Source: Desulfobacteraceae bacterium (GTDB taxonomy: Bacteria; Desulfobacterota; Desulfobacteria; Desulfobacterales; Desulfobacteraceae). From it: a DNA stretch of 24,000 nucleotides. The notes under the pieces are model-generated. The model saw only the letters and a list, made by a program, of their open reading frames with translations, did no database searches and was not told where the DNA came from. The stretch covers positions 972,972-996,971 of the forward strand of contig OZ245369.1 of NCBI GenBank assembly GCA_965226635.1, written 5' to 3'. Positions 2,664 through 19,619 of the stretch are shown here, piece by piece (positions within the stretch are counted from its first letter, which is position 1; every line of letters starts with the position of its first letter). A program made the position numbers and the translations under genes.

Positions 2664-2877
2664 ACCGAATTTTCAAATGAAGACGGCACCATGATGCACC
2701 GGCGCCCCTGTGGACCTGCCTGTGGAAGAACCGTCCCCGGCACCGCCCCTTGGAGCATCACAGGCGCTGGATGAGATAGATAAGGTCTGCACTGGTGTTT
2801 GGACCCCAAATAGGGAAGCCGGAATCCGGCGGCAATGGCCATTGCCCGGCTCTGTGTCTCAAATGGGGATGGGCCTG

Positions 2878-4116
2878 CTAGGGTTTCAACACCAGGAAGT
2901 AGAGGCTGCCCCGGACATTGAGGTGCCCGGCCGTGAATTCGGCCCACTCCCCGTTGCCGCAGAAGACATCCACCCGGCCGGCCCCCTTGATGGCCCCGCC
3001 CGTATCCTGATTCATGACAAAGAGGGAGACCCGGGGCCAGTCCTTACGCCCCGGCCCGGTCCAGCCCTTTTTGTCTTCTTTGCGGACCATGTCCGTGGCA
3101 TCGGGCAATGCCGTTCGCACAAAGGCCAAGGCCCCCCTGGGGAAGACCTTGGAATCCGTGGCAATGGAGCGCACCGGGGTCACGGCGGTTCCCAGGCAGC
3201 CAAAGGGTCCGCCCTCTTCGGTCTTGAAAAAGACAAAGCTGGGATTGTGGAAGAGGATCTCATCCATGCGTTGGGGGTTGGCCTCCAGCCATTGACGGAT
3301 GGCCTGCATGGACATTTTTTCCCTGGGGATTTCCCCCTTTTCAATGAGGTAACGGCCAATGGAGCGGTATGCCTGTCCGTTGGAACCGGCATAGTGGACC
3401 CTGAGGGTTTCGCCTTCAGGTGTTTCCACCCGGCCGCTGCCCTGGATCTCCAGGAAAAACCGGTCCACCCGGTTCTCCAGCCAGAGCACGGGCTCCCCCT
3501 GGAATCCGGGATCGGTGTTGATCTCCTCCCGGGAATAATAAGGGATGACCTGGTTCTTTTCCACCCGGGCCTTGAGCTTGCCCAGGCCCTTGTACTTTTC
3601 CCCGAACCGGGACAGATCGATCTGCAAGATGTCCGAAGGCATGCCGTAGAGGGGATAGGCAAAACGCTGGTCCGGGGTGCGGCTGCCCCCATAGGTGGGT
3701 TCGTAATACCCGGTGAAGAGCACCCCGGGATCGGAATTAAAGGTCGAGGCATAGACCTGGTACTGGCCCTTGATAAAGGTGTTCAAGGCCCGGGTGGAGG
3801 GGCGGGTCTTTAAAAAGGTTTTCAGCACCTCCAGGGAGCGGATCATCTGATCGGCGGTAAAGACATCCCCCCCAAAATCATACCGCCGTTTGGGCGGCAC
3901 CCTGCGATAGTAGACCAGGCTCTGGTCAATGGACTGGTCCAGCCCTTGGAAATCCAGGCTGTCCATGAAGGCAGGGTATTCCTCGGGTTCCAGGGCCACC
4001 AGGGCCGTGTCGGGACGTTCCCCGGGGGGCCGCCCCCGGTGGGGGTCACACCCCCATAGGCAGAGCAACCCCATCACCACAACACAGATACGGAATTCAA
4101 GACGCCTTGGTCCCAT
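2878..4116 (-). CDS. mltA: Murein transglycosylase A (MltA-type lytic transglycosylase), lipoprotein
   Basis: Signal/lipobox-like MGLLCLWGC. MltA-domain features are YYEPTYGGSR, LENRVDRFFLEIQGSGRV and RSIATDSKVFPRGALAF (3D domain). Confidence 0.85.
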   Translation of the reverse strand: MGPRRLEFRICVVVMGLLCLWGCDPHRGRPPGERPDTALVALEPEEYPAFMDSLDFQGLDQSIDQSLVYYRRVPPKRRYDFGGDVFTADQMIRSLEVLKTFLKTRPSTRALNTFIKGQYQVYASTFNSDPGVLFTGYYEPTYGGSRTPDQRFAYPLYGMPSDILQIDLSRFGEKYKGLGKLKARVEKNQVIPYYSREEINTDPGFQGEPVLWLENRVDRFFLEIQGSGRVETPEGETLRVHYAGSNGQAYRSIGRYLIEKGEIPREKMSMQAIRQWLEANPQRMDEILFHNPSFVFFKTEEGGPFGCLGTAVTPVRSIATDSKVFPRGALAFVRTALPDATDMVRKEDKKGWTGPGRKDWPRVSLFVMNQDTGGAIKGAGRVDVFCGNGEWAEFTAGHLNVRGSLYFLVLKP

Positions 4117-5293
4117 GGCCCTCTCCTTTTTTCAGGGTACGTACCGTGGTCTGCTCCGGCTCCAGGCAGGCGATCTCGCCCATCTCCCTGGCCGACACCC
4201 CCAGCTCGGTGAGCTTCCGGGCCGGCACCATAACCCGGCTCTCCAGGGTGGACACGGTCTTGTTATAGCTTGCGGCACAGCGTTCGATGTCCCGGCCCAG
4301 ACGGCCCAGGTGATCCCCCATGGAGGAAAGGCGCTGGTAGAGCTGGGCCCCCAGGTCCCGGATTTCCCGGGCATTGTCGTGGGAGCGCTGCTGCTGCCAG
4401 GCATAGGCCACGGTCTTCAACAGGGCGATGAGGGTGGTGGGCGTGGCCAGGATCACCCCCTTTTCAACCCCCATGTCAATGAGGTCGGGCCGGTGCTTCA
4501 AGGCGGCGGAGAAAAAATTCTCCCCAGGCACAAAGAGCACCACAAAGGCCGGGGTGGGGGTAAATGCCTGGGTATACTTTTTAGAGGAGAGCTGACGGAT
4601 GTGGGTGGCCACCTGGCGGGCATGGTCTTCCATGCAGGCCTTTTGGGTGGCCTCATCCTTGGCCTCCAGGGCATCCAGGTAGGCCAGAAGGGGCACCTTG
4701 GAATCCACGATGATCTTCCGCTTCCCGGGCAGGGTGATGACCATGTCAGGCCGCAGGCTGCCCTTGCCGGTTTTGCCGTCGGTCATCTGCTCCACAAAAT
4801 CACATTGGTCCACCATGCCCGACAGCTCGGCGGCCCGTTTCAGGGTGATCTCTCCCCAGCGGCCCCGCACATGGGGCACCCGCAAGGCCTTGACCAAATT
4901 CCCGGTCTCCATGTGAAGGAGCTGCTGGGTTTGTCCCATCTGCTTCAACACCTGGGCAATGGCCCCGTTGGCCCGCTGGCGTTCCGCCTCCATGGCCTGG
5001 AGCCGGTCTTCATAGCGGTGCATGGACTGTTTCACCGGGTCCATGGTCTGGCGAATCTGGTCCCCCTTGAGGTCAAACTCCCTGCGGGCCTGGTCCAGGT
5101 AGCAGGAAAAATGGGACTGGGCCATGTCCATGAACCGGGCGGCCTGGTCGTTGAGGGCCTGCTGGGACAAATCCTCCAGCCGGTTGGAAAAAAACAAAAC
5201 ACCGGTGCGGGCCAGGATAAAACTGACCAGAACCCCCAGAAGGAATCCCACCCCCAAAAGGGAAAGGGCCTGGGGTGTGATCAGATCACCCAT
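4097..5293 (-). CDS. rmuC: DNA recombination protein RmuC
   Basis: N-terminal TM helix, long coiled coil, then LRVPHVRGRWGEITLKRAAELSGM..DFVEQ and LPGKRKIIVDSKVPL, all typical of RmuC. I chose the ATG at 5293 (8-nt overlap with the moaC stop). The ORF-track start at 5338 would overlap moaC by 53 nt. Confidence 0.85.
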   Translation of the reverse strand: MGDLITPQALSLLGVGFLLGVLVSFILARTGVLFFSNRLEDLSQQALNDQAARFMDMAQSHFSCYLDQARREFDLKGDQIRQTMDPVKQSMHRYEDRLQAMEAERQRANGAIAQVLKQMGQTQQLLHMETGNLVKALRVPHVRGRWGEITLKRAAELSGMVDQCDFVEQMTDGKTGKGSLRPDMVITLPGKRKIIVDSKVPLLAYLDALEAKDEATQKACMEDHARQVATHIRQLSSKKYTQAFTPTPAFVVLFVPGENFFSAALKHRPDLIDMGVEKGVILATPTTLIALLKTVAYAWQQQRSHDNAREIRDLGAQLYQRLSSMGDHLGRLGRDIERCAASYNKTVSTLESRVMVPARKLTELGVSAREMGEIACLEPEQTTVRTLKKGEGHGTKAS

Positions 5294-5804: not shown

Positions 5805-6179
5805 TCAATGGGATGGGCTGTCAACGTAGAACTGGGTCTTTTTCGTGACCTCGGCCTTGATGAGGTTCAGGGTGTCGGTGAGGCATTCCAGGACATTCTC
5901 CCGGATATCACCGGCCACCACCAGGTACATGACATCCTCTCCCACATCCAGGGGTTTGTCCTCTTCAATGTGGACCAGGATCTCAATGATCCCGGGGCGG
6001 GCCTTCTGCCGGGCCAGGATCTCGGCCAGGCGGCCATGGTCAACGGTGAGGGAAAGCCCTGTCACGGCCTCGCCTTCCCGGGTGTTTTCACGGACAACAC
6101 CGTTGTGGGCCAGGATCATGCCGGCCTTGGGGTAATCGGGATGGGCCTTGATCCGATCCACCAGGGTTTGAAGATTCAT
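5805..6179 (-). CDS. MoaE-like molybdopterin synthase subunit family protein (short form)
   Basis: ATG at 6179 with AGGAGA RBS (reverse complement of 6186-6193). GMILAHNGVVRENTREG..ILVHIEEDKPLDVGEDVMYLVVAGDIRENVLECLTDTLNLIKAEVTKK follows the MoaE pattern G..F.G.VR / V.HR.G.L..GE..V.V.V...R..AF. It sits between mobA and moaC. Confidence 0.55.
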   Translation of the reverse strand: MNLQTLVDRIKAHPDYPKAGMILAHNGVVRENTREGEAVTGLSLTVDHGRLAEILARQKARPGIIEILVHIEEDKPLDVGEDVMYLVVAGDIRENVLECLTDTLNLIKAEVTKKTQFYVDSPSH

Positions 6180-8448: not shown

Positions 8449-8567
8449 TATCGTTCAGCCCAATCCAATGCATATATTCAATCCATTCAACGCCCGATTA
8501 TACAGCCCCTGCCTACTGCCCCCAAAAACCTCATTACTACTCTCACCGTAATAATAGATACTTTGAC

Positions 8568-8596
8568 TCAGTAGTGTCCGGTTAGATTGTTGCAGT
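8568..8596 (+). repeat. Left terminal inverted repeat of the IS4-like element
   Basis: TCAGTAGTGTCCGGTTAGATTGTTGCAGT matches the reverse complement of 9561-9589 (TCAGTAATGTCCGGTTAGGTTTTTGCTGT). Confidence 0.75.
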
Positions 8597-8695
8597 TAAG
8601 AACTCATTAAATTTATTAAAATTTTTTAGTTTTTCTATTGACAAATGTACGCAAAAATTTTGCGCGCCTTGAAAATCTTATTTCAAGGAGGCACA

Positions 8696-9030
8696 ATGGC
8701 GCGCATTATAGTCCCAAAACAACAATTAAAGTCCCTGAACTTTGACAATTTCAAATTCCCTTTGGTAGAGTTGCATCCAATGGCACCAGAATTAAAATCA
8801 CGAGGTGATCGACCTTTGAAAATGACCTTTGAGGACCAGCTAAATGCGTTGATTTATTTTCATCTCCAGGAGCATAAATCAGCCCGTCACTTGGTTCAGG
8901 ATCTCAAAGAAAATGTTTTTGCCAAAGAGCACATCGCTCCAGATGGAGGTATTAGCCGTAGCAGTTTTTCTGAAGCGATAAATAGCCGAGGTCTTGATCA
9001 GCTCCAGTTCTATTTTGAAAAAAGCCGCTT
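8696..9030 (+). pseudogene. Truncated IS4-family (DUF4372-type N-terminus) transposase
   Basis: ATG at 8696 after CAAGGAGG. MARIIVPKQQLKSLNFDNFKF..PLKMTFEDQLNALIYFHLQEHKSARHLVQDLKEN..SRSSFSEAINSRG resembles the N-terminal DUF4372 region of IS4-family transposases. The catalytic DDE part is absent, and the reading frame runs into unrelated sequence near 9030. Confidence 0.6.
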
Positions 9031-9032
9031 AA

Positions 9033-9194
9033 AAAACTGTCCAGTTTTACTTGACCACGTCACTGAATTTTGGAGAATGGTCAAAGGTGTTTGGTGACAA
9101 GAAAATGACAACCGCTCTTCTGGATCGTCTCACCCATCATTGTGAGATAGTTGAGACCGGAAACGAGAGCTGGAGATTGAAGAGCAGGCAGTGA
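9033..9194 (+). pseudogene. istB: C-terminal remnant of IS21-family IstB helper ATPase
   Basis: The frame translates ..[48 protein letters not shown], the conserved IstB C-terminus (F.EW..VFGD...A.A.LDRL.HH..I....G.SYRLK). A 45-bp tail follows and ends ..GATTGACA at 9239, which is a TGT.. terminus read outward. Confidence 0.75.
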
Positions 9195-9239
9195 TTCTTT
9201 TTTAGCTCCAGGGGGGTCAAAATTGGACGCCGATTGACA

Positions 9240-9401
9240 CTCCAGAAGTTCTATACGCTTCTGTCTACATAAATCTTTTAAAATTTCACCAACTCGACGT
9301 CTAAATTTCCCGTACAACTTCTTTTTCCGGTATTTTGGCACAAATACCACATGATATTTGCAATCCCATCTCACATGAGATAGGCTTTCCCAATCGTGCA
9401 T
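9240..9401 (-). pseudogene. tnpA: N-terminal 54 codons of an IS200/IS605-family Y1 transposase TnpA, interrupted
   Basis: MHDWESLSHVRWDCKYHVVFVPKYRKKKLYGKFRRRVGEILKDLCRQKRIELLE is the conserved IS200 TnpA N-terminus. The HUH/catalytic Tyr part is missing, and homology stops exactly at the IS21 end (9239/9240). Confidence 0.8.
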
Positions 9402-9505
9402 AGGTTCATCCTCTCTGGCCCTTTGGGGCTTTCCATGGGGATGAACCTATATCATTTCTCACTGTATCGGTTGAACCTCTTAGGGTCCTCCACCATAGGT
9501 GGAGG
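9402..9505 (-). promoter_or_regulatory. IS200-type 5' leader structures: an RBS-occluding hairpin and an upstream perfect hairpin
   Basis: AGGTTCATCC (9402-9411) pairs with GGATGAACCT (9439-9448) and covers the tnpA Shine-Dalgarno. CCTCCACC-ATA-GGTGGAGG (9487-9505) is a perfect 8-bp stem. Both are known architectural features of the IS200 left end. Confidence 0.6.
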
Positions 9506-9560
9506 ATTACGTCACGGATTTAGACAGGGACAATATTGTCAAAGATCAAAAAATTTTAAC

Positions 9561-9589
9561 ACAGCAAAAACCTAACCGGACATTACTGA
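9561..9589 (-). repeat. Right terminal inverted repeat of the IS4-like element
   Basis: See the left inverted repeat; 25/29 identity in inverted orientation. Confidence 0.75.
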
Positions 9590-9690
9590 AAAGAAGGGGA
9601 AGTTTTACACCCCCTTTAGTCCAACGGAATTCAGCCCAGGGGAAAAGACTGAGACACAAGGATATCGTTATGCTGTCCAAAGACATCAGT

Positions 9691-9722
9691 TTATTGTTAA
9701 ATCTGATTATTGTTAAATCTGA
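9691..9722 (+). repeat. Perfect tandem duplication, 2 x 16 bp (TTATTGTTAAATCTGA)
   Basis: Read directly: 9691-9706 is identical to 9707-9722. Confidence 0.95.
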
Positions 9723-9827
9723 ATTTATGACCGACTGGAGAATGTTTGCGACAAAAATCCGTTTTTGGACAACAGTGACAGCACATGAAAAACTGCGCTT
9801 ACCCTAAAGGATAGGGCAGGGACAATA

Positions 9828-14611: not shown

Positions 14612-15838
14612 TTACAAAAGGCCGGAAAGGTCAAACCGATCGGAGCGGTTCATGGTCCGGATGAACCGGCGGAGCAATTCCGTATCAAAGCAGTGGGCCA
14701 TGCCCTTGTCCCGCAGCTTCATCCGGGCTTTTACCCGTTTCCGGGCCTCTTCCTCCAGCATTTCCTTTTCCCGCAGCCGCTTCAACTTGGCCTCGTAGTC
14801 GTCCCTGACCACGGTCACCACCGGGGCCTTGCGGTTCTCCTTGGCTTCGGCTTCAAACTTGTGCAGCACCTCCACATAGGGATTCTCCCCGGACATGATC
14901 CGGAGGGCCTCAAAGGGGGTCTTTGCTATCTTATACGCCCGTTTGGAAGTTAATGCATCAAAGACATCCACGATGTGACAGACCCGGGACAGCAACGGGA
15001 TCTCATCGCCGCTAAGACCGCAGGGGTAGCCGGATCCATCCTGGTTTTCATGGTGGTAAAGCACAATTTCCAGGCAGCGCCTGGACAGCTGGGTCTTAAA
15101 AAGAAGCCCCATGGAATAGGCCGCATGGGACTGGATCAACACATATTCAAGGTTGTTCAGCTTTCCCGGCTTGTTGATCACATTTTTAGGAATCTTGATC
15201 TTGCCGATGTCGTGGAAGAATCCGGCGGCCGTGGCCTGGATCATCAGGGTGCGCAGCTCGGCCTCGGACAGACCGGGAAACAGATCCCGATTGGTGTTGA
15301 TGAACAGTGCCAGAAGCCATCCCACCTTGATGGAGTGAATATGGGTGTCGTAATCATGGCCCACCAGCCGGGCCAGACCTTCCAGGGAACGGATATCCGA
15401 GATAAACTCAATCACCGTGGTGATGAGCCGGGTGATATTCACCATCATCCGATCGGTTTCCGTCTTGGAGGCAAAGTCCGCCTTAAAGGCCTCCTGGATC
15501 ACGTCCGCAGAAGAGGCCACCAGGGAGGCGCTCTTCTGACCGGGGCCGATCTGATCATGGTTCAAAATATAGGTCAGGTTTTCCCGGATATAGGTTCGAT
15601 ACAATGCCCTCTGCTCCTGGTGGATATAAACCAGCTCCCAGGCATTGAGCATCCGGATCAGACGCTCCCTGGGAACGGAACAGGCGTCCTTGAGAAGACA
15701 ACGGAATCGAAAAAGGTCATCGGTGTAGCGACGGCGTTCATATAAAGCAAATCCGGCCAGATGGTCCGGATCAATGGATTTGGGATCAATGGCAAAAAAA
15801 AGACGGCCATCATTGACATACTCTGCTGCCAGAGTCAT
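14612..15838 (-). CDS. HD-GYP domain protein (putative c-di-GMP phosphodiesterase)
   Basis: FFHDIGKIKIP and HHENQDGSGYPCGL motifs. The N-terminal domain of about 180 aa is unrecognised. AAGGAG RBS. Confidence 0.9.
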   Translation of the reverse strand: MTLAAEYVNDGRLFFAIDPKSIDPDHLAGFALYERRRYTDDLFRFRCLLKDACSVPRERLIRMLNAWELVYIHQEQRALYRTYIRENLTYILNHDQIGPGQKSASLVASSADVIQEAFKADFASKTETDRMMVNITRLITTVIEFISDIRSLEGLARLVGHDYDTHIHSIKVGWLLALFINTNRDLFPGLSEAELRTLMIQATAAGFFHDIGKIKIPKNVINKPGKLNNLEYVLIQSHAAYSMGLLFKTQLSRRCLEIVLYHHENQDGSGYPCGLSGDEIPLLSRVCHIVDVFDALTSKRAYKIAKTPFEALRIMSGENPYVEVLHKFEAEAKENRKAPVVTVVRDDYEAKLKRLREKEMLEEEARKRVKARMKLRDKGMAHCFDTELLRRFIRTMNRSDRFDLSGLL

Positions 15839-16022
15839 GAAACGTACTCCTTAACCTGAACATGGAACTCGAAATGGTTCACATGGAATATAATGAATAT
15901 TTGAGGATTTTTTTACCGCTTTTTACCAAAAAACACTCTCTGTGTAAAGAAGAGTTCGGATCATGTATGCCCGGCCCAATAGCGCGATCCAAGTCCGTCA
16001 TCCCTGAAACCGGGATTTTTTC

Positions 16023-16051
16023 TTGACGCCACAGCTCCTGTTGTTTATCGT
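16023..16051 (+). promoter_or_regulatory. Putative sigma-70 promoter of the arsR-hgcAB operon
   Basis: TTGACG (16023-16028), 17-nt spacer, TATCGT (16046-16051), 36 nt upstream of the arsR ATG. Confidence 0.4.
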
Positions 16052-16086
16052 TCAAAATCAGGAACAAAGACAGGAACAGGGAAGAG

Positions 16087-16383
16087 ATGAACTTTGTAAA
16101 CCCCGTGCAACGCCCCCTCTCCGATGAAGAAGCAGCCCGTCTGTTCAAAGCCTTGGGCCACCCGACACGCCTTCAGATTCTGAAGTTTTTACTGGCCTCG
16201 GGCCAGGGGTTCTGTGGTGAGATCGTTAAGCAATTCCCCTTTTCCCAGTCCACCATCAGTCAACACCTGAAACTCCTCCGCCAATCCGGCCTCATACAGC
16301 GCCAGGGGGTGGGGGCCAAATCCCGTTTTTCGGTGAATCCACAGATGCTGGACCGACTGAAAGCAACCCTAAAACACATATAA
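16087..16383 (+). CDS. arsR: ArsR/SmtB-family metalloregulator
   Basis: LFKALGHPTRLQILKFL.., FCGEIV and SQSTISQHLKLLRQSGLI winged-HTH signature. A single Cys (Cys43) sits at the alpha-3 sensing position. Confidence 0.9.
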   Translation: MNFVNPVQRPLSDEEAARLFKALGHPTRLQILKFLLASGQGFCGEIVKQFPFSQSTISQHLKLLRQSGLIQRQGVGAKSRFSVNPQMLDRLKATLKHI

Positions 16384-16397
16384 ATCAAAGGAGATCA

Positions 16398-17582
16398 ATG
16401 ACCTTTCCCATGGCCCCAAGAGGCAGCGACAAACAGGGCAAGGGCCTATCCTCCAGTGGTGTGCAGATCCTGCCGGACATGGCTGCCCTGCCCTGCTGTG
16501 ACACCGGCGCCCCCCAGGACGACCCCGCCCCTTTTCAACGCCCCGGCTACACCCTCATGCCCTGGGTTAAGACATTTTTCACCACCCCGGTCGGACCGGT
16601 TCCCCAGGTCCATGACCGGCGCAGTCCTAAAGAAAAATGGACCACGGCCCTGGCCCGGTGCGGCATCAACCGCTACGGGTTCACCGTATCCCCCGGACTC
16701 TACGCCGTTGGGGAACCGGACCCGGAAAGTCCGGTGCTGGTCACGGCCAACTTTAAACTCACCTTTGACCAGGTCCGGGAGGCCATGGCCGGCCGGAATG
16801 CCTGGATACTGGTCCTGGATACCCGGGGCATCAATGTCTGGTGCGCCGCAGGCAAGGGCACCTTTGCCACCCATGAAGTGGTGAGGCAGATCCAGGCCTG
16901 CCAATTGGCCCAGGTGGTCTCCCACAGGCGACTGATCCTTCCCCAGCTTGGTGCCACCGGCGTTTCCGCCGGCGAGGTAAAAAGACAATCCGGATTCCGG
17001 GTGATCTACGGCCCCATCCGGTGTACGGACATCCCCGCCTTTCTGGACAACAAATCCAAGGCAACCCCTGAAATGCGCCAGGTCACCTTTACCCTGGGTG
17101 AACGCCTCATCCTCACCCCGGTGGAGGTGCAGATCACCCTGAAGCCCGCCCTGATCACAGCACTCCTCCTCATCCTCCTTTCCGGCATCGGACCCGGGAT
17201 CTTCTCCATTTCCGCAGCCATTGAGCGGGGTGGCATGGCCATGGCCGCCATGGTGGCCGGCATCCTTTCCGGTGCAGTGGCCACCCCGGCCCTTCTGCCC
17301 CATATTCCCGTGCGGGAATTTGCCCTCAAGGGCATCATCACCGGGGCGGTGGCCGCCCTGATTCTCATCCCCATGATGCCTTTGGGCACCCTGGGATTTG
17401 CCGGCGGCAACGCCCTGTTCTGGTTCACCATTGCCATCTCTTCCTTCCTGGCCATGAACTTCACCGGCACCACCCCCTTTACCTCCCCCTCCGGGGTGGA
17501 AAAGGAAATGAAACGCTATATGCCCTTTCAGCTGGCCGGCCTGGTTCTGGCAGCTGGATCGTGGATATATGCCGCCTTTTAA
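16398..17582 (+). CDS. hgcA: Mercury methylation corrinoid protein HgcA
   Basis: Diagnostic cap-helix motif GINVWCAAGKGTF (Cys149 codon at 16842-16844). Also PGY..MPWV, SPVLVTANFKLTFD, LILPQLGATGVSAGEV, a C-terminal block of about 5 TM helices and TPFTSPSGVEKEM. RBS AAAGGAGA. Confidence 0.92.
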   Translation: MTFPMAPRGSDKQGKGLSSSGVQILPDMAALPCCDTGAPQDDPAPFQRPGYTLMPWVKTFFTTPVGPVPQVHDRRSPKEKWTTALARCGINRYGFTVSPGLYAVGEPDPESPVLVTANFKLTFDQVREAMAGRNAWILVLDTRGINVWCAAGKGTFATHEVVRQIQACQLAQVVSHRRLILPQLGATGVSAGEVKRQSGFRVIYGPIRCTDIPAFLDNKSKATPEMRQVTFTLGERLILTPVEVQITLKPALITALLLILLSGIGPGIFSISAAIERGGMAMAAMVAGILSGAVATPALLPHIPVREFALKGIITGAVAALILIPMMPLGTLGFAGGNALFWFTIAISSFLAMNFTGTTPFTSPSGVEKEMKRYMPFQLAGLVLAAGSWIYAAF

Positions 17583-17594
17583 AACGGAGGACCC

Positions 17595-17885
17595 ATGAAA
17601 GACTTTCGACACCTGGAAGACGTGGCCACCCTGGCCCTTGACCGGGACAAATGCATCGGCTGCACCCTGTGCACCCTGGTCTGCCCCCACCAGGTCATTG
17701 AAATGCAGGAAAAAAAGGCCGCCATTGTGGATTTCAACGCCTGTATGGAATGCGGGGCCTGTGTCAATAACTGCCCCACCCAGGCCATTTCCGTAAGCCC
17801 GGGGGTGGGCTGAGCCTCCTATATTATCCAGGTCTGGATAAAGGGAGAGGAAAATGCATCCTGCGGCAGCGGCGGCTGTTGTTGA
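17595..17885 (+). CDS. hgcB: Mercury methylation ferredoxin HgcB, read through an in-frame TGA (17811-17813) as probable selenocysteine (U73); 96 aa
   Basis: MKDFRHL start, with two CxxCxxCxxxCP motifs (CIGCTLCTLVCP, CMECGACVNNCP). The ORF-track stop falls after GVG, where HgcB proteins carry a conserved Cys. The continued frame gives ASYIIQVWIKGEENASCGSGGCC*, ending in the family-typical CC tail. A SECIS-like hairpin follows the TGA. Confidence 0.75.
17815..17850 (+). promoter_or_regulatory. Bacterial SECIS-like stem-loop (recoding signal)
   Basis: The upper stem UUAUCCA (17824-17830) pairs with UGGAUAA (17835-17841) and is closed by a GGUC tetraloop (17831-17834). The loop G lies 21 nt from the U of UGA. 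A lower stem CCUC (17815-17818) pairs with GAGG (17847-17850). From memory, the E. coli fdhF SECIS apex is UGCA-GGUC-UGCA at nearly the same distance. Confidence 0.6.
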
Positions 17886-17951
17886 AAATCCACAACAATT
17901 GATAAAGAACAGATCATTTAAAAAAGGGCCCGTGAACAGGGCCCACATAAC

Positions 17952-17989
17952 AAAAGCGCCGGGAGACGAGTCACCGGCGCTTTTGTTTT
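17952..17989. terminator. Bidirectional rho-independent terminator shared by hgcB and the convergent permease gene
   Basis: AGCGCCGG (17955-17962) pairs with CCGGCGCT (17974-17981) around an 11-nt loop. It is flanked by AAAA upstream and TTTTGTTTT downstream. Confidence 0.75.
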
Positions 17990-18068
17990 ATGCTGTCACA
18001 CCGGGCCTTGGGGCCCGGCAAATATGTCTTGGAAAAAATCCAGGGCCGCCTGGATCTCCCCGCCGGGG

Positions 18069-19526
18069 TTAGCCGATGAGGGCGGGAATCCCCGGAATCA
18101 TGCCCACAATGGCCATGGCACCGGTGCTCACCACAAAGGCGGCCCCGGGAATGACCAGGCGGTCCATGTGGGTGAGGATCTTGGAGCGTTCCCCGTCCCC
18201 GATGAGGCTGTTGTTGTCCAGGAACATGGTCAATGCCCAGCCGAACACGGGGTTAACAAAGGCAGAAGAAAAAATGCAGATTCCTGCGGTCTGGCAGTCC
18301 TTGGTCTCTTTAACCATGGCCATACCCGCCTCCAGAAGCGGGAGATAAACCCCCACCAGCAGGGCGATGCTGAGCACGGGGCGCCACACGGCAATGTCCA
18401 TGGGATAGCCCAGAACCAGGACCACAATACAGATGATGCCGGTGAGGATGGCCCCGCCCGGAATGGGGCGTTTGGCAATGGCCGCCGGAATCATATAGGT
18501 GCCCCAGGAAGAGGTGATGCAGCCGGAACCGAAGATGGCGCAGACCACCTGCCGCAGGGAACAGCCGATCATGGTGTCGTCCACTTCCATGACCACCTCA
18601 TTGGCCTCTTCCGGATAGTTCATCTCCTGGAAGATCCGATGGCCCAGGAAATCCGGCGGCCACATGGCCACGGCCAGGATGGCAAAGGGAAGGGAGGCAA
18701 TGAAGTGGGACACACTGGGAAGACCGATTTTCCAACCGGTATCGGCCCCCCACCAATAAAAGGGGTTCAGGTTGGGCAACCCCGGTGAGGTGGTGAATTC
18801 AAAGGGCGCTCCCAGGCCCAGGGCCACCAGGGCGGCGGTGAGGGAACAGATGGGAATGGCCAGCCAGCGTTTCTTGATCCGGGCCAGGTAGGCGTAAAGG
18901 ATCAGGTTCACAAACAGGACAAAAAAGCCGATATATCCCATGTTGATCCCGTGGGCCCAGTCCATCATGGCCGATGCCTGGCCCAGGGTGCCCTTGGCGC
19001 CCAGGAAGACCAGCAGGCCCCCGGCCACCCCGGCACTGGTGGCATTGATCAGCCGGGATCCCCCCTTGGTGATACTGAGAATCACCCCAAACAGTGCAAT
19101 GAGAATCCCCAGGGCAAGGGGATGGGTTCCCGAAGCCGCCATGAGGGGAATCAAGGGCATCATGGGGCCGTGGATACCGGGCAGGTTGGCCCGGGGATTA
19201 AAGGTCCCTGAAAACAAAATTACAAACAACAACGAGACCACCAGCATGTCCACTCTTACGTTTTCAACGATAAAGGCGGTGTCCAGTCCGTACACGTCTG
19301 CAAAGGCCCGGGTCAGTGCGGAACACATGACCACCAGGCCGATGGTACCGGCAATGGCAGGAATAAAGTCCTCCAGCTCAATCCGATAATCACGGAACGG
19401 CAGGTTCAGTCCCCAGCGCCTGGGCTTCATAATGGACAGCTCATGGTCCAGGTAATCTGACCGCGTTTCAAACTCACTGCAGGACTTATGCAGGGTCCGG
19501 TAACGCGACGAATCCGTCTCTTTCAT
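18069..19526 (-). CDS. Polytopic inner-membrane protein, putative permease of unidentified family
   Basis: ATG at 19526 lies 6 nt after AAGGAGG (reverse complement of 19533-19539). The product is about 485 aa with at least 10 hydrophobic segments (e.g. IAGTIGLVVMCSAL, LVVSLLFVILFSG, LALGILIALFGVILSI) and a soluble N-terminal region of about 40 aa. I could not confidently match it to a family. Confidence 0.7.
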   Translation of the reverse strand: MKETDSSRYRTLHKSCSEFETRSDYLDHELSIMKPRRWGLNLPFRDYRIELEDFIPAIAGTIGLVVMCSALTRAFADVYGLDTAFIVENVRVDMLVVSLLFVILFSGTFNPRANLPGIHGPMMPLIPLMAASGTHPLALGILIALFGVILSITKGGSRLINATSAGVAGGLLVFLGAKGTLGQASAMMDWAHGINMGYIGFFVLFVNLILYAYLARIKKRWLAIPICSLTAALVALGLGAPFEFTTSPGLPNLNPFYWWGADTGWKIGLPSVSHFIASLPFAILAVAMWPPDFLGHRIFQEMNYPEEANEVVMEVDDTMIGCSLRQVVCAIFGSGCITSSWGTYMIPAAIAKRPIPGGAILTGIICIVVLVLGYPMDIAVWRPVLSIALLVGVYLPLLEAGMAMVKETKDCQTAGICIFSSAFVNPVFGWALTMFLDNNSLIGDGERSKILTHMDRLVIPGAAFVVSTGAMAIVGMIPGIPALIG

Positions 19527-19589
19527 CCGAATCCTCCTTAAGGTAGGGCTATGAAATAAAGGGTGTTTATTTAGTGAACAGCATTCGGC

Positions 19590-19619
19590 CTTATAGGTTA
19601 ACCCATTGCTTTCTGTCAA
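19590..19619 (-). promoter_or_regulatory. Putative sigma-70 promoter of the permease gene
   Basis: On the minus strand: TTGACA (19619-19614), 18-nt spacer, TATAAG (19595-19590). Confidence 0.35.

Follow-up and report, generated by a model that had tools for sequence, protein, structure and literature searches.

A 24,000-nt stretch of DNA from a Desulfobacteraceae bacterium (assembly GCA_965226635.1, contig OZ245369.1, positions 972,972 to 996,971 of the forward strand; hereafter called the window) carries the mercury-methylation genes hgcA and hgcB. The hgcA gene (16398–17582, plus strand) encodes a 394-residue corrinoid protein that scores 427 bits against the NCBIfam profile NF040863 (HgcA_corrinoid, cut-off 275). 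It lies directly upstream of hgcB, which starts 13 nt past it. From its ATG at 17595, the hgcB open reading frame (ORF) runs for 72 codons ending ..SPGVG and then meets a TGA at 17811–17813 (plus strand). Past this TGA the same frame reads ASYIIQVWIKGEENASCGSGGCC, 23 sense codons with a Cys-Cys end, up to another TGA at 17883–17885. An earlier note on the window had taken the first of these TGAs for a probable selenocysteine (Sec) codon, served by a hairpin resembling a selenocysteine insertion sequence (SECIS). That codon, and the protein it would give, are the subject of this analysis.

Read through, hgcB spans 17595–17885 (plus strand; 96 codons and the final stop). Translation and alignment bear out the 96-residue conceptual product of the earlier note, with the TGA as residue 73. 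The protein contains two CxxCxxCxxxCP [4Fe-4S] motifs, CIGCTLCTLVCP and CMECGACVNNCP, with Pfam matches to Fer4 and Fer4_7. Its tail holds Cys90 (codon 17862–17864, plus strand) within the motif ENASCG, and ends in Cys95-Cys96, whose codons together with the true stop occupy 17877–17885 (plus strand). The hallmark of HgcB is a strictly conserved Cys about 12 residues past the second cluster motif (Cys73), together with a C-terminal Cys (PMC7305189). In the window this hallmark depends on decoding of the TGA as Sec or Cys. With the TGA read as Cys, the read-through protein scores 124.2 bits against the HgcB profile NF040864 and covers model positions 1–93 of 93; the truncated 72-residue protein scores 101.4 bits (model positions 1–68), still above the cut-off of 99. 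The tail thus raises the family score by 23 bits and fills the rest of the profile.

Alignment places residue 73 on the invariant Cys of Cys-type HgcBs, and C95 and C96 on their terminal Cys-Cys, so that the correspondence foreseen in the earlier note is found by profile, by homologue listing and by alignment alike. We searched 5.8 billion proteins; of the 120 Cys-type homologues listed, about 110 carry GVGC-A[SA]YIIQxW..GxENASCG..CC. Indeed, the string GVG-C-A[SA]YIIQ[VS]W[IL]KGxENASCG..GCC is near-uniform in Cys-type HgcBs, and it is the string that the window encodes past its TGA. A UGA codon aligned to a conserved Cys in this way is the classic signature of a putative Sec/Cys pair. The same search returned five protein clusters that are 72-residue truncations of HgcB (P0003, P0015, P0077, P0090 and P0116), of which P0003 is the window protein. 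In the DNA of each of the other four, codon 73 is TGA and the frame runs on through a tail that closes with CC-stop.

The arrangement is widespread among relatives. TGA, tail and hairpin occur in 36 other distinct sequences, from Desulfobacteraceae-type genomes and metagenome contigs, and the TGA is kept in all 37 when the window is included. One genome per GTDB species was scanned, and of the 80 loci obtained 31 have TGA at codon 73 and 46 have TGC or TGT. The 31 TGA loci are labelled Desulfobacter, Desulfobacula, Desulfotignum, Desulfamplus, Desulfobacterium or Desulfobacteraceae, or more broadly Desulfobacterales or Deltaproteobacteria. Differences between the tails of TGA-type relatives are mainly synonymous, and similarity is lost immediately past the CC-stop; the earlier note had proposed such a comparison of orthologous loci. 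Across the 37 sequences, variation in codons 83–92 is mostly synonymous with the amino acids fixed; residue 90 is Cys in all 37, encoded by TGC or TGT. In a neighbour-joining tree of HgcA, the 28 TGA-type loci with a complete hgcA form one clade of substantial divergence.

One relative has an unusual tail. At 3217–3291 of locus L028 (Desulfobacteraceae metagenome-assembled genome Glo_11), a second in-frame TGA stands right after ENASC, where relatives have Gly, and is followed by DSGCC-TGA. It is the only example and may represent a Cys-Sec pair near the C-terminus, or else an error.

Immediately downstream of codon 73 lies the putative SECIS (17818–17845, plus strand), delimited by single-sequence folding, by RNAalifold and by its frozen codons. 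It comprises a lower 3-bp helix CCU/RGG (17818–17820 with 17843–17845), an upper 7-bp stem (17824–17830 with 17835–17841) and a GGUC loop (17831–17834). The element sequence is ATTATCCAGGTNTGGATA, 10 nt past the TGA. The minimum-energy fold of a 53-nt segment (–15.1 kcal/mol) contains the upper stem and GGUC loop. The first G of the loop is nucleotide 21, as the earlier note had counted, when the U of UGA is nucleotide 1, and 17 nt separate UGA and loop. Of the two-part stem-loop described in that note, the 7-bp upper stem and its loop stand. The lower part does not: a CCUC/GAGG pairing (17815–17818 with 17847–17850) forms in the window's own fold but is not conserved in relatives, which conserve CCU/RGG instead.

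Selection on the hairpin shows in its codons. The 37 distinct TGA-type sequences share 58 degenerate codons whose amino acid is conserved; 54 of these vary synonymously and four never do. The four frozen codons, 77 (ATT), 78 (ATC), 79 (CAG) and 82 (ATA), are exactly the degenerate codons of the 7-bp stem. Their neighbours vary: codon 76 is TAT or TAC, codon 83 is AAA or AAG, and codon 80, which supplies the fourth loop base, is GTC, GTG, GTA or GTT, with the loop GGU conserved. At the same residues Cys-type genes use ATC, ATT and ATA, and CAA and CAG, freely. The mean fold energy of the 24-nt hairpin segment is –2.3 kcal/mol in Cys-type genes versus –6.3 kcal/mol in TGA-type genes; in the former the hairpin is weak or lacking. 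An RNAalifold consensus of 36 sequences (–8.79 kcal/mol) has an invariant upper stem, a GGUN loop and the 3-bp lower helix CCU/RGG, which is retained through U-A to U-G changes only. The hairpin is under nucleotide-level selection only in TGA-type genes.

The earlier description of the hairpin as SECIS-like agrees with the published model of bacterial SECIS elements. That model allows a loop of 3–9 nt and an upper stem of 4–16 bp, requires G at loop positions 1 and 2, spaces UGA and loop by 16–37 nt and sets a minimum free energy of –7.5 kcal/mol or lower (PMC13188914). Compared with these constraints one by one, rather than through the bSECISearch program, the hgcB hairpin satisfies them all (4-nt loop, 7-bp stem, GG, 17-nt spacing, –15.1 kcal/mol).

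The hairpin also resembles the SECIS of Escherichia coli fdhF (formate dehydrogenase H), whose sequence we confirmed against 5,419 E. coli genomes. Both are hairpins within the ORF just 3' of the UGA, and they share the octamer core CAGGUCUG and a GGUC apical loop. Similar spacing had been claimed as well; by our count the loop starts at nucleotide 21 in hgcB and at nucleotide 22 in fdhF, so that the fdhF loop sits one nucleotide further out. The upper stem of fdhF has a bulged U (U17 of the element) that contributes to SelB binding in E. coli. By contrast, the hgcB upper stem pairs perfectly over 7 bp, is rich in A/U and has no bulged U, and the lower helix is only 3 bp. By analogy, the hgcB hairpin would work like the fdhF SECIS, without being a copy of it.

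We conclude from these comparisons that the hgcB gene of the window very probably encodes a 96-residue selenoprotein, with Sec decoded at UGA 73 through this SECIS. Once the ribosome has reached UGA 73, SelB carrying Sec-tRNA(Sec) would bind the hairpin starting 11 nt downstream, and Sec would be inserted in place of termination. Translation would then continue through ASYIIQVWIKGEENASCGSGGCC to the real stop, and the product would be a dicluster ferredoxin with U73, C90 and C95-C96.

What a Sec at this position might do can be judged from the Cys-type HgcB of Pseudodesulfovibrio mercurii ND132. The two proteins share the pair of CxxCxxCxxxCP motifs, the GVG-73 position, the helical extension and the C-terminal Cys-Cys; they differ in that ND132 HgcB has Cys rather than Sec at 73 and a tail of another type (..YLISVWLHKLTG..). 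By mutagenesis, residues 73 and 94/95 have been shown to matter for function (PMC7305189; PMC11588087). In ND132, the C73A change in HgcB abolishes mercury methylation, and about 95% of activity depends on the C-terminal pair Cys94/95 (PMC7305189); this bears out what the earlier note says of a required Cys73 and a C-terminal Cys-Cys. In the published HgcAB model, the flexible Cys-Cys tail shuttles Hg(II)/CH3Hg+ between the HgcA corrinoid and residue 73 (PMC7305189). By extension from this work on Cys73, a selenol at position 73 would be a tighter and more nucleophilic mercury ligand at the relay point.

Several observations weigh against Sec decoding. The 24-kb window contains no selA, selB, selD or tRNA-Sec gene, and no tRNA gene at all; Pfam annotation of 20 further window ORFs gave no Sec machinery and no other selenoprotein candidate. 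Experiments are not known to have detected selenium in an HgcB. No Rfam family matched this region at gathering thresholds, and a search of 17700–17960 with E-values up to 10 gave only chance matches to long non-coding RNAs and microRNAs; a SECIS family was absent from both results. The z-score of the fold against shuffled sequences is only –1.2, which puts the single-sequence energy within chance; folding energy by itself is thus no proof, and the argument is built on comparison with relatives. In the 36-sequence RNAalifold analysis the stem is invariant and has no compensatory base changes, so the RNA structure is backed by synonymous-site freezing and not by covariation. Moreover, one Desulfotignum-like hgcB (locus L009, JGI metagenome 3300040796) has TTA (Leu) at codon 73 (471–473), with hairpin and tail identical to those of TGA-type Desulfotignum genes. 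Either the TTA comes from an error in the reads or the assembly, or the essential residue has truly been lost; position 73 is alterable at least in an assembly.

Three other explanations were weighed. UGA 73 might be read through as something other than Sec, by near-cognate Trp or Cys or as Cys on tRNA(Sec) at low selenium, with the hairpin serving as a general read-through stimulator. Both the missing selenium measurement and the absence of Sec machinery from the 24-kb window speak for this, and the Sec pathway can insert Cys at UGA under selenium limitation. We nevertheless consider it very improbable: the hairpin has the specific features of a SelB-binding element, with a GGU loop at the canonical distance, and that GGU is conserved though the fourth base varies. 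A UGA/Cys alignment is, besides, the mark of a Sec/Cys pair, and the Thermodesulfobacteriota (formerly Deltaproteobacteria) are among the most selenoprotein-rich bacterial groups (reviewed in PMC13188914). Slighter still is the chance that the TGA is a true stop, leaving a 72-residue HgcB without Cys73 or Cys-Cys tail and 72 nt of untranslated DNA downstream. Gene callers do give this product in the window genome and in relatives, as the five truncation clusters illustrate, and it passes the NF040864 cut-off. Yet it would be missing the C-terminal pair as well as residue 73, the mutation of which eliminates methylation (PMC7305189), while in 37 sequences the 23 downstream codons stay in frame, conserve their amino acids, vary synonymously and end in the Cys-Cys of the family.

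We give next to no credence to the last alternative, that the TGA arose by an error of sequencing or assembly, or else that TGC or TGT has very recently mutated to it and turned the gene into a pseudogene. TGA is one substitution away from either codon, and the TTA of L009 is evidence that single-base differences occur at this position. However, 31 species-representative genomes carry the TGA, as do several metagenome assemblies made independently in different studies, the 28 loci with complete hgcA make up one substantially diverged clade, and a pseudogene would neither retain the tail nor freeze the codons of the hairpin. Across species representatives and relatives, a TGA followed by a tail of translated type effectively excludes sequencing error, recent pseudogene and true stop alike.

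The earlier note knew of no described Sec-containing HgcB. In fact, it has already been published. Haft & Gwadz described Sec73-HgcB (bioRxiv 10.1101/2022.07.06.499078; J Bacteriol 2023, 205:e00259-22; NCBIfam NF040864, motif GVGU) and termed it 'occasional' (17/266). Their Supplemental Figure 8 gives one clade reading GVGU-A[SA]YIIQVWIK (WP_250697400.1, WP_250697390.1, -391 and -393) and a second reading GVGU-AYAILKG. A 2024 biochemical paper remarks that HgcB homologues "may be selenoproteins" (PMC11588087), and in the table of a 2026 review HgcB stands, under the same NCBIfam model, among the selenoproteins with a GVGU motif. The window HgcB matches the protein of Haft & Gwadz in family, in Sec at 73 (the ninth invariant Cys), in clade signature and in Cys-Cys terminus. 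It is one more ortholog of a described selenoprotein, and Sec-HgcB is not novel. Our data differ from theirs on two counts: here the Sec form is not sporadic but fixed throughout a whole clade of Desulfobacteraceae type, and a SECIS is delimited, the main text of their preprint giving none for hgcB. The explicit hgcB SECIS with its synonymous-site signature, and the clade-wide fixation of Sec, are modest additions. Possibly new are the explicit SECIS and the repeated loss, in the Sec-HgcB clade, of the Cys-Cys motif of HgcA.

That motif lies near the HgcA N-terminus. According to Haft & Gwadz, most HgcA proteins have Sec in an N-terminal PCUGP motif. Sec-HgcA and the putative Sec-HgcB of the window belong to the same operon and the same presumed mercury chemistry, and in each a UGA is followed by a hairpin (G+C-rich in hgcA); they differ in protein and site. 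The window HgcA has the Cys-Cys form of the motif (LPCCDTG), not Cys-Sec, and its ORF contains no in-frame TGA. We read the corresponding N-terminal region (16398–16600 in the window) in all fetched loci, L001–L054 among them. Among 43 distinct loci with Cys-type HgcB, HgcA is Cys-Sec in 18, Cys-Cys in 23 and without a vicinal pair in two; the UGA with its G+C-rich hairpin was seen in those 18. The 27 distinct Sec-type loci of the Desulfobacteraceae clade are distributed quite differently, with no Cys-Sec, eight Cys-Cys (the window included) and 19 without a vicinal pair. Fisher's exact test on these counts gives p = 5e-9, uncorrected for shared ancestry. In the HgcA neighbour-joining tree, which carries no bootstrap values, the Cys-Cys forms are scattered within the single Sec-HgcB clade, which implies at least six independent losses of the vicinal pair.

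A tentative explanation, and one we think rather unlikely to be the right one, is that once Sec had replaced Cys73 of HgcB in the Desulfobacteraceae, the vicinal Cys-Cys or Cys-Sec motif of HgcA became dispensable and decayed repeatedly. If this were true, residue 73 of HgcB and the N-terminal motif of HgcA would both take part in handing over Hg(II) along one path, and a selenol at one of the two sites could do the work of the other. We also considered whether Sec never occurs in HgcA and HgcB together. The proteobacterial sample conforms to this, but both species of Alkaliphilus reject it as a general rule. In Alkaliphilus peptidifermentans and A. hydrothermalis (L090, about 3000–4290; L091/L092, about 2800–4270), hgcA contains C-TGA and hgcB contains GVG-TGA, and a separate hairpin follows each of the two. 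In hgcA the C-TGA precedes a conserved TCTAGTTTAGAGGAA hairpin, G+C-rich as in the Cys-HgcB loci; hgcB reads GVG-TGA-AYAI[IL]KGWLTGSRPC.., and its hairpins differ from that of Desulfobacteraceae hgcB. On sequence grounds, these Firmicutes appear to have two selenoproteins in the hgcAB operon. With Sec at both sites in Alkaliphilus, any compensation between HgcA and HgcB would be lineage-specific. What is left is a relaxation of the HgcA motif, confined to the Sec-HgcB lineage, once Sec had appeared in HgcB.

Directly 5' of hgcA lies a gene for an ArsR/SmtB-family metalloregulator (16087–16383, plus strand; Pfam HTH_5; NCBIfam NF033788, 73.8 bits), and an arsR-like gene occupies the equivalent position in the related loci L001–L003 and was not called in L004. 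The gene order over 14612–19619 is kept in the nearest relatives (L001 and L004): a divergent HD-GYP-type (HD/HD_5) gene, hgcA, hgcB and a convergent gene for a DUF3360 membrane protein (516 residues, 776 bits) 3' of hgcB. A probable intrinsic terminator of the hgcAB operon can be read directly at 17956–17989 (plus strand), as GCGCCGG, an 11-nt loop and CCGGCGC followed by TTTTGTTTT. It is missing from the list of a consensus scan, presumably since its loop exceeds the 8-nt limit of that scan. Back to back with it, between hgcB and the convergent DUF3360 gene, is a minus-strand terminator hairpin at 17926–17944. Both terminators lie 3' of the extended hgcB stop, not of the codon-73 TGA, which fits the longer ORF.

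Elsewhere in the window we examined a TGA at 5805–5807 (minus strand) as a second Sec codon and rejected it; it merely ends one of two ORFs in the same frame, moaE-like and moaC-like, as an ordinary stop would, with GGAGGA and an ATG start after it. These molybdenum-cofactor genes (moaE-like, moaC-like, mobA-like and MoCF_biosynth) adjoin a low-G+C island at about 8500–9800 (0.39–0.45, against 0.57 for the whole window) with three short ORFs. The one island ORF that was scanned, at 8645–9097, has no Pfam match. The island is possibly acquired DNA.

HgcAB makes methylmercury, a bioaccumulating neurotoxin, and residue 73 of HgcB is essential to the reaction. Automated and metagenome gene calls systematically truncate the hgcB of this clade to 72 residues, and surveys that demand Cys73, Cys-Cys or a full-length HgcB will miss or mis-score these organisms. 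A selenol at HgcB 73 would tie mercury methylation to selenium supply in Desulfobacter, Desulfobacula, Desulfotignum and related sulfate reducers.

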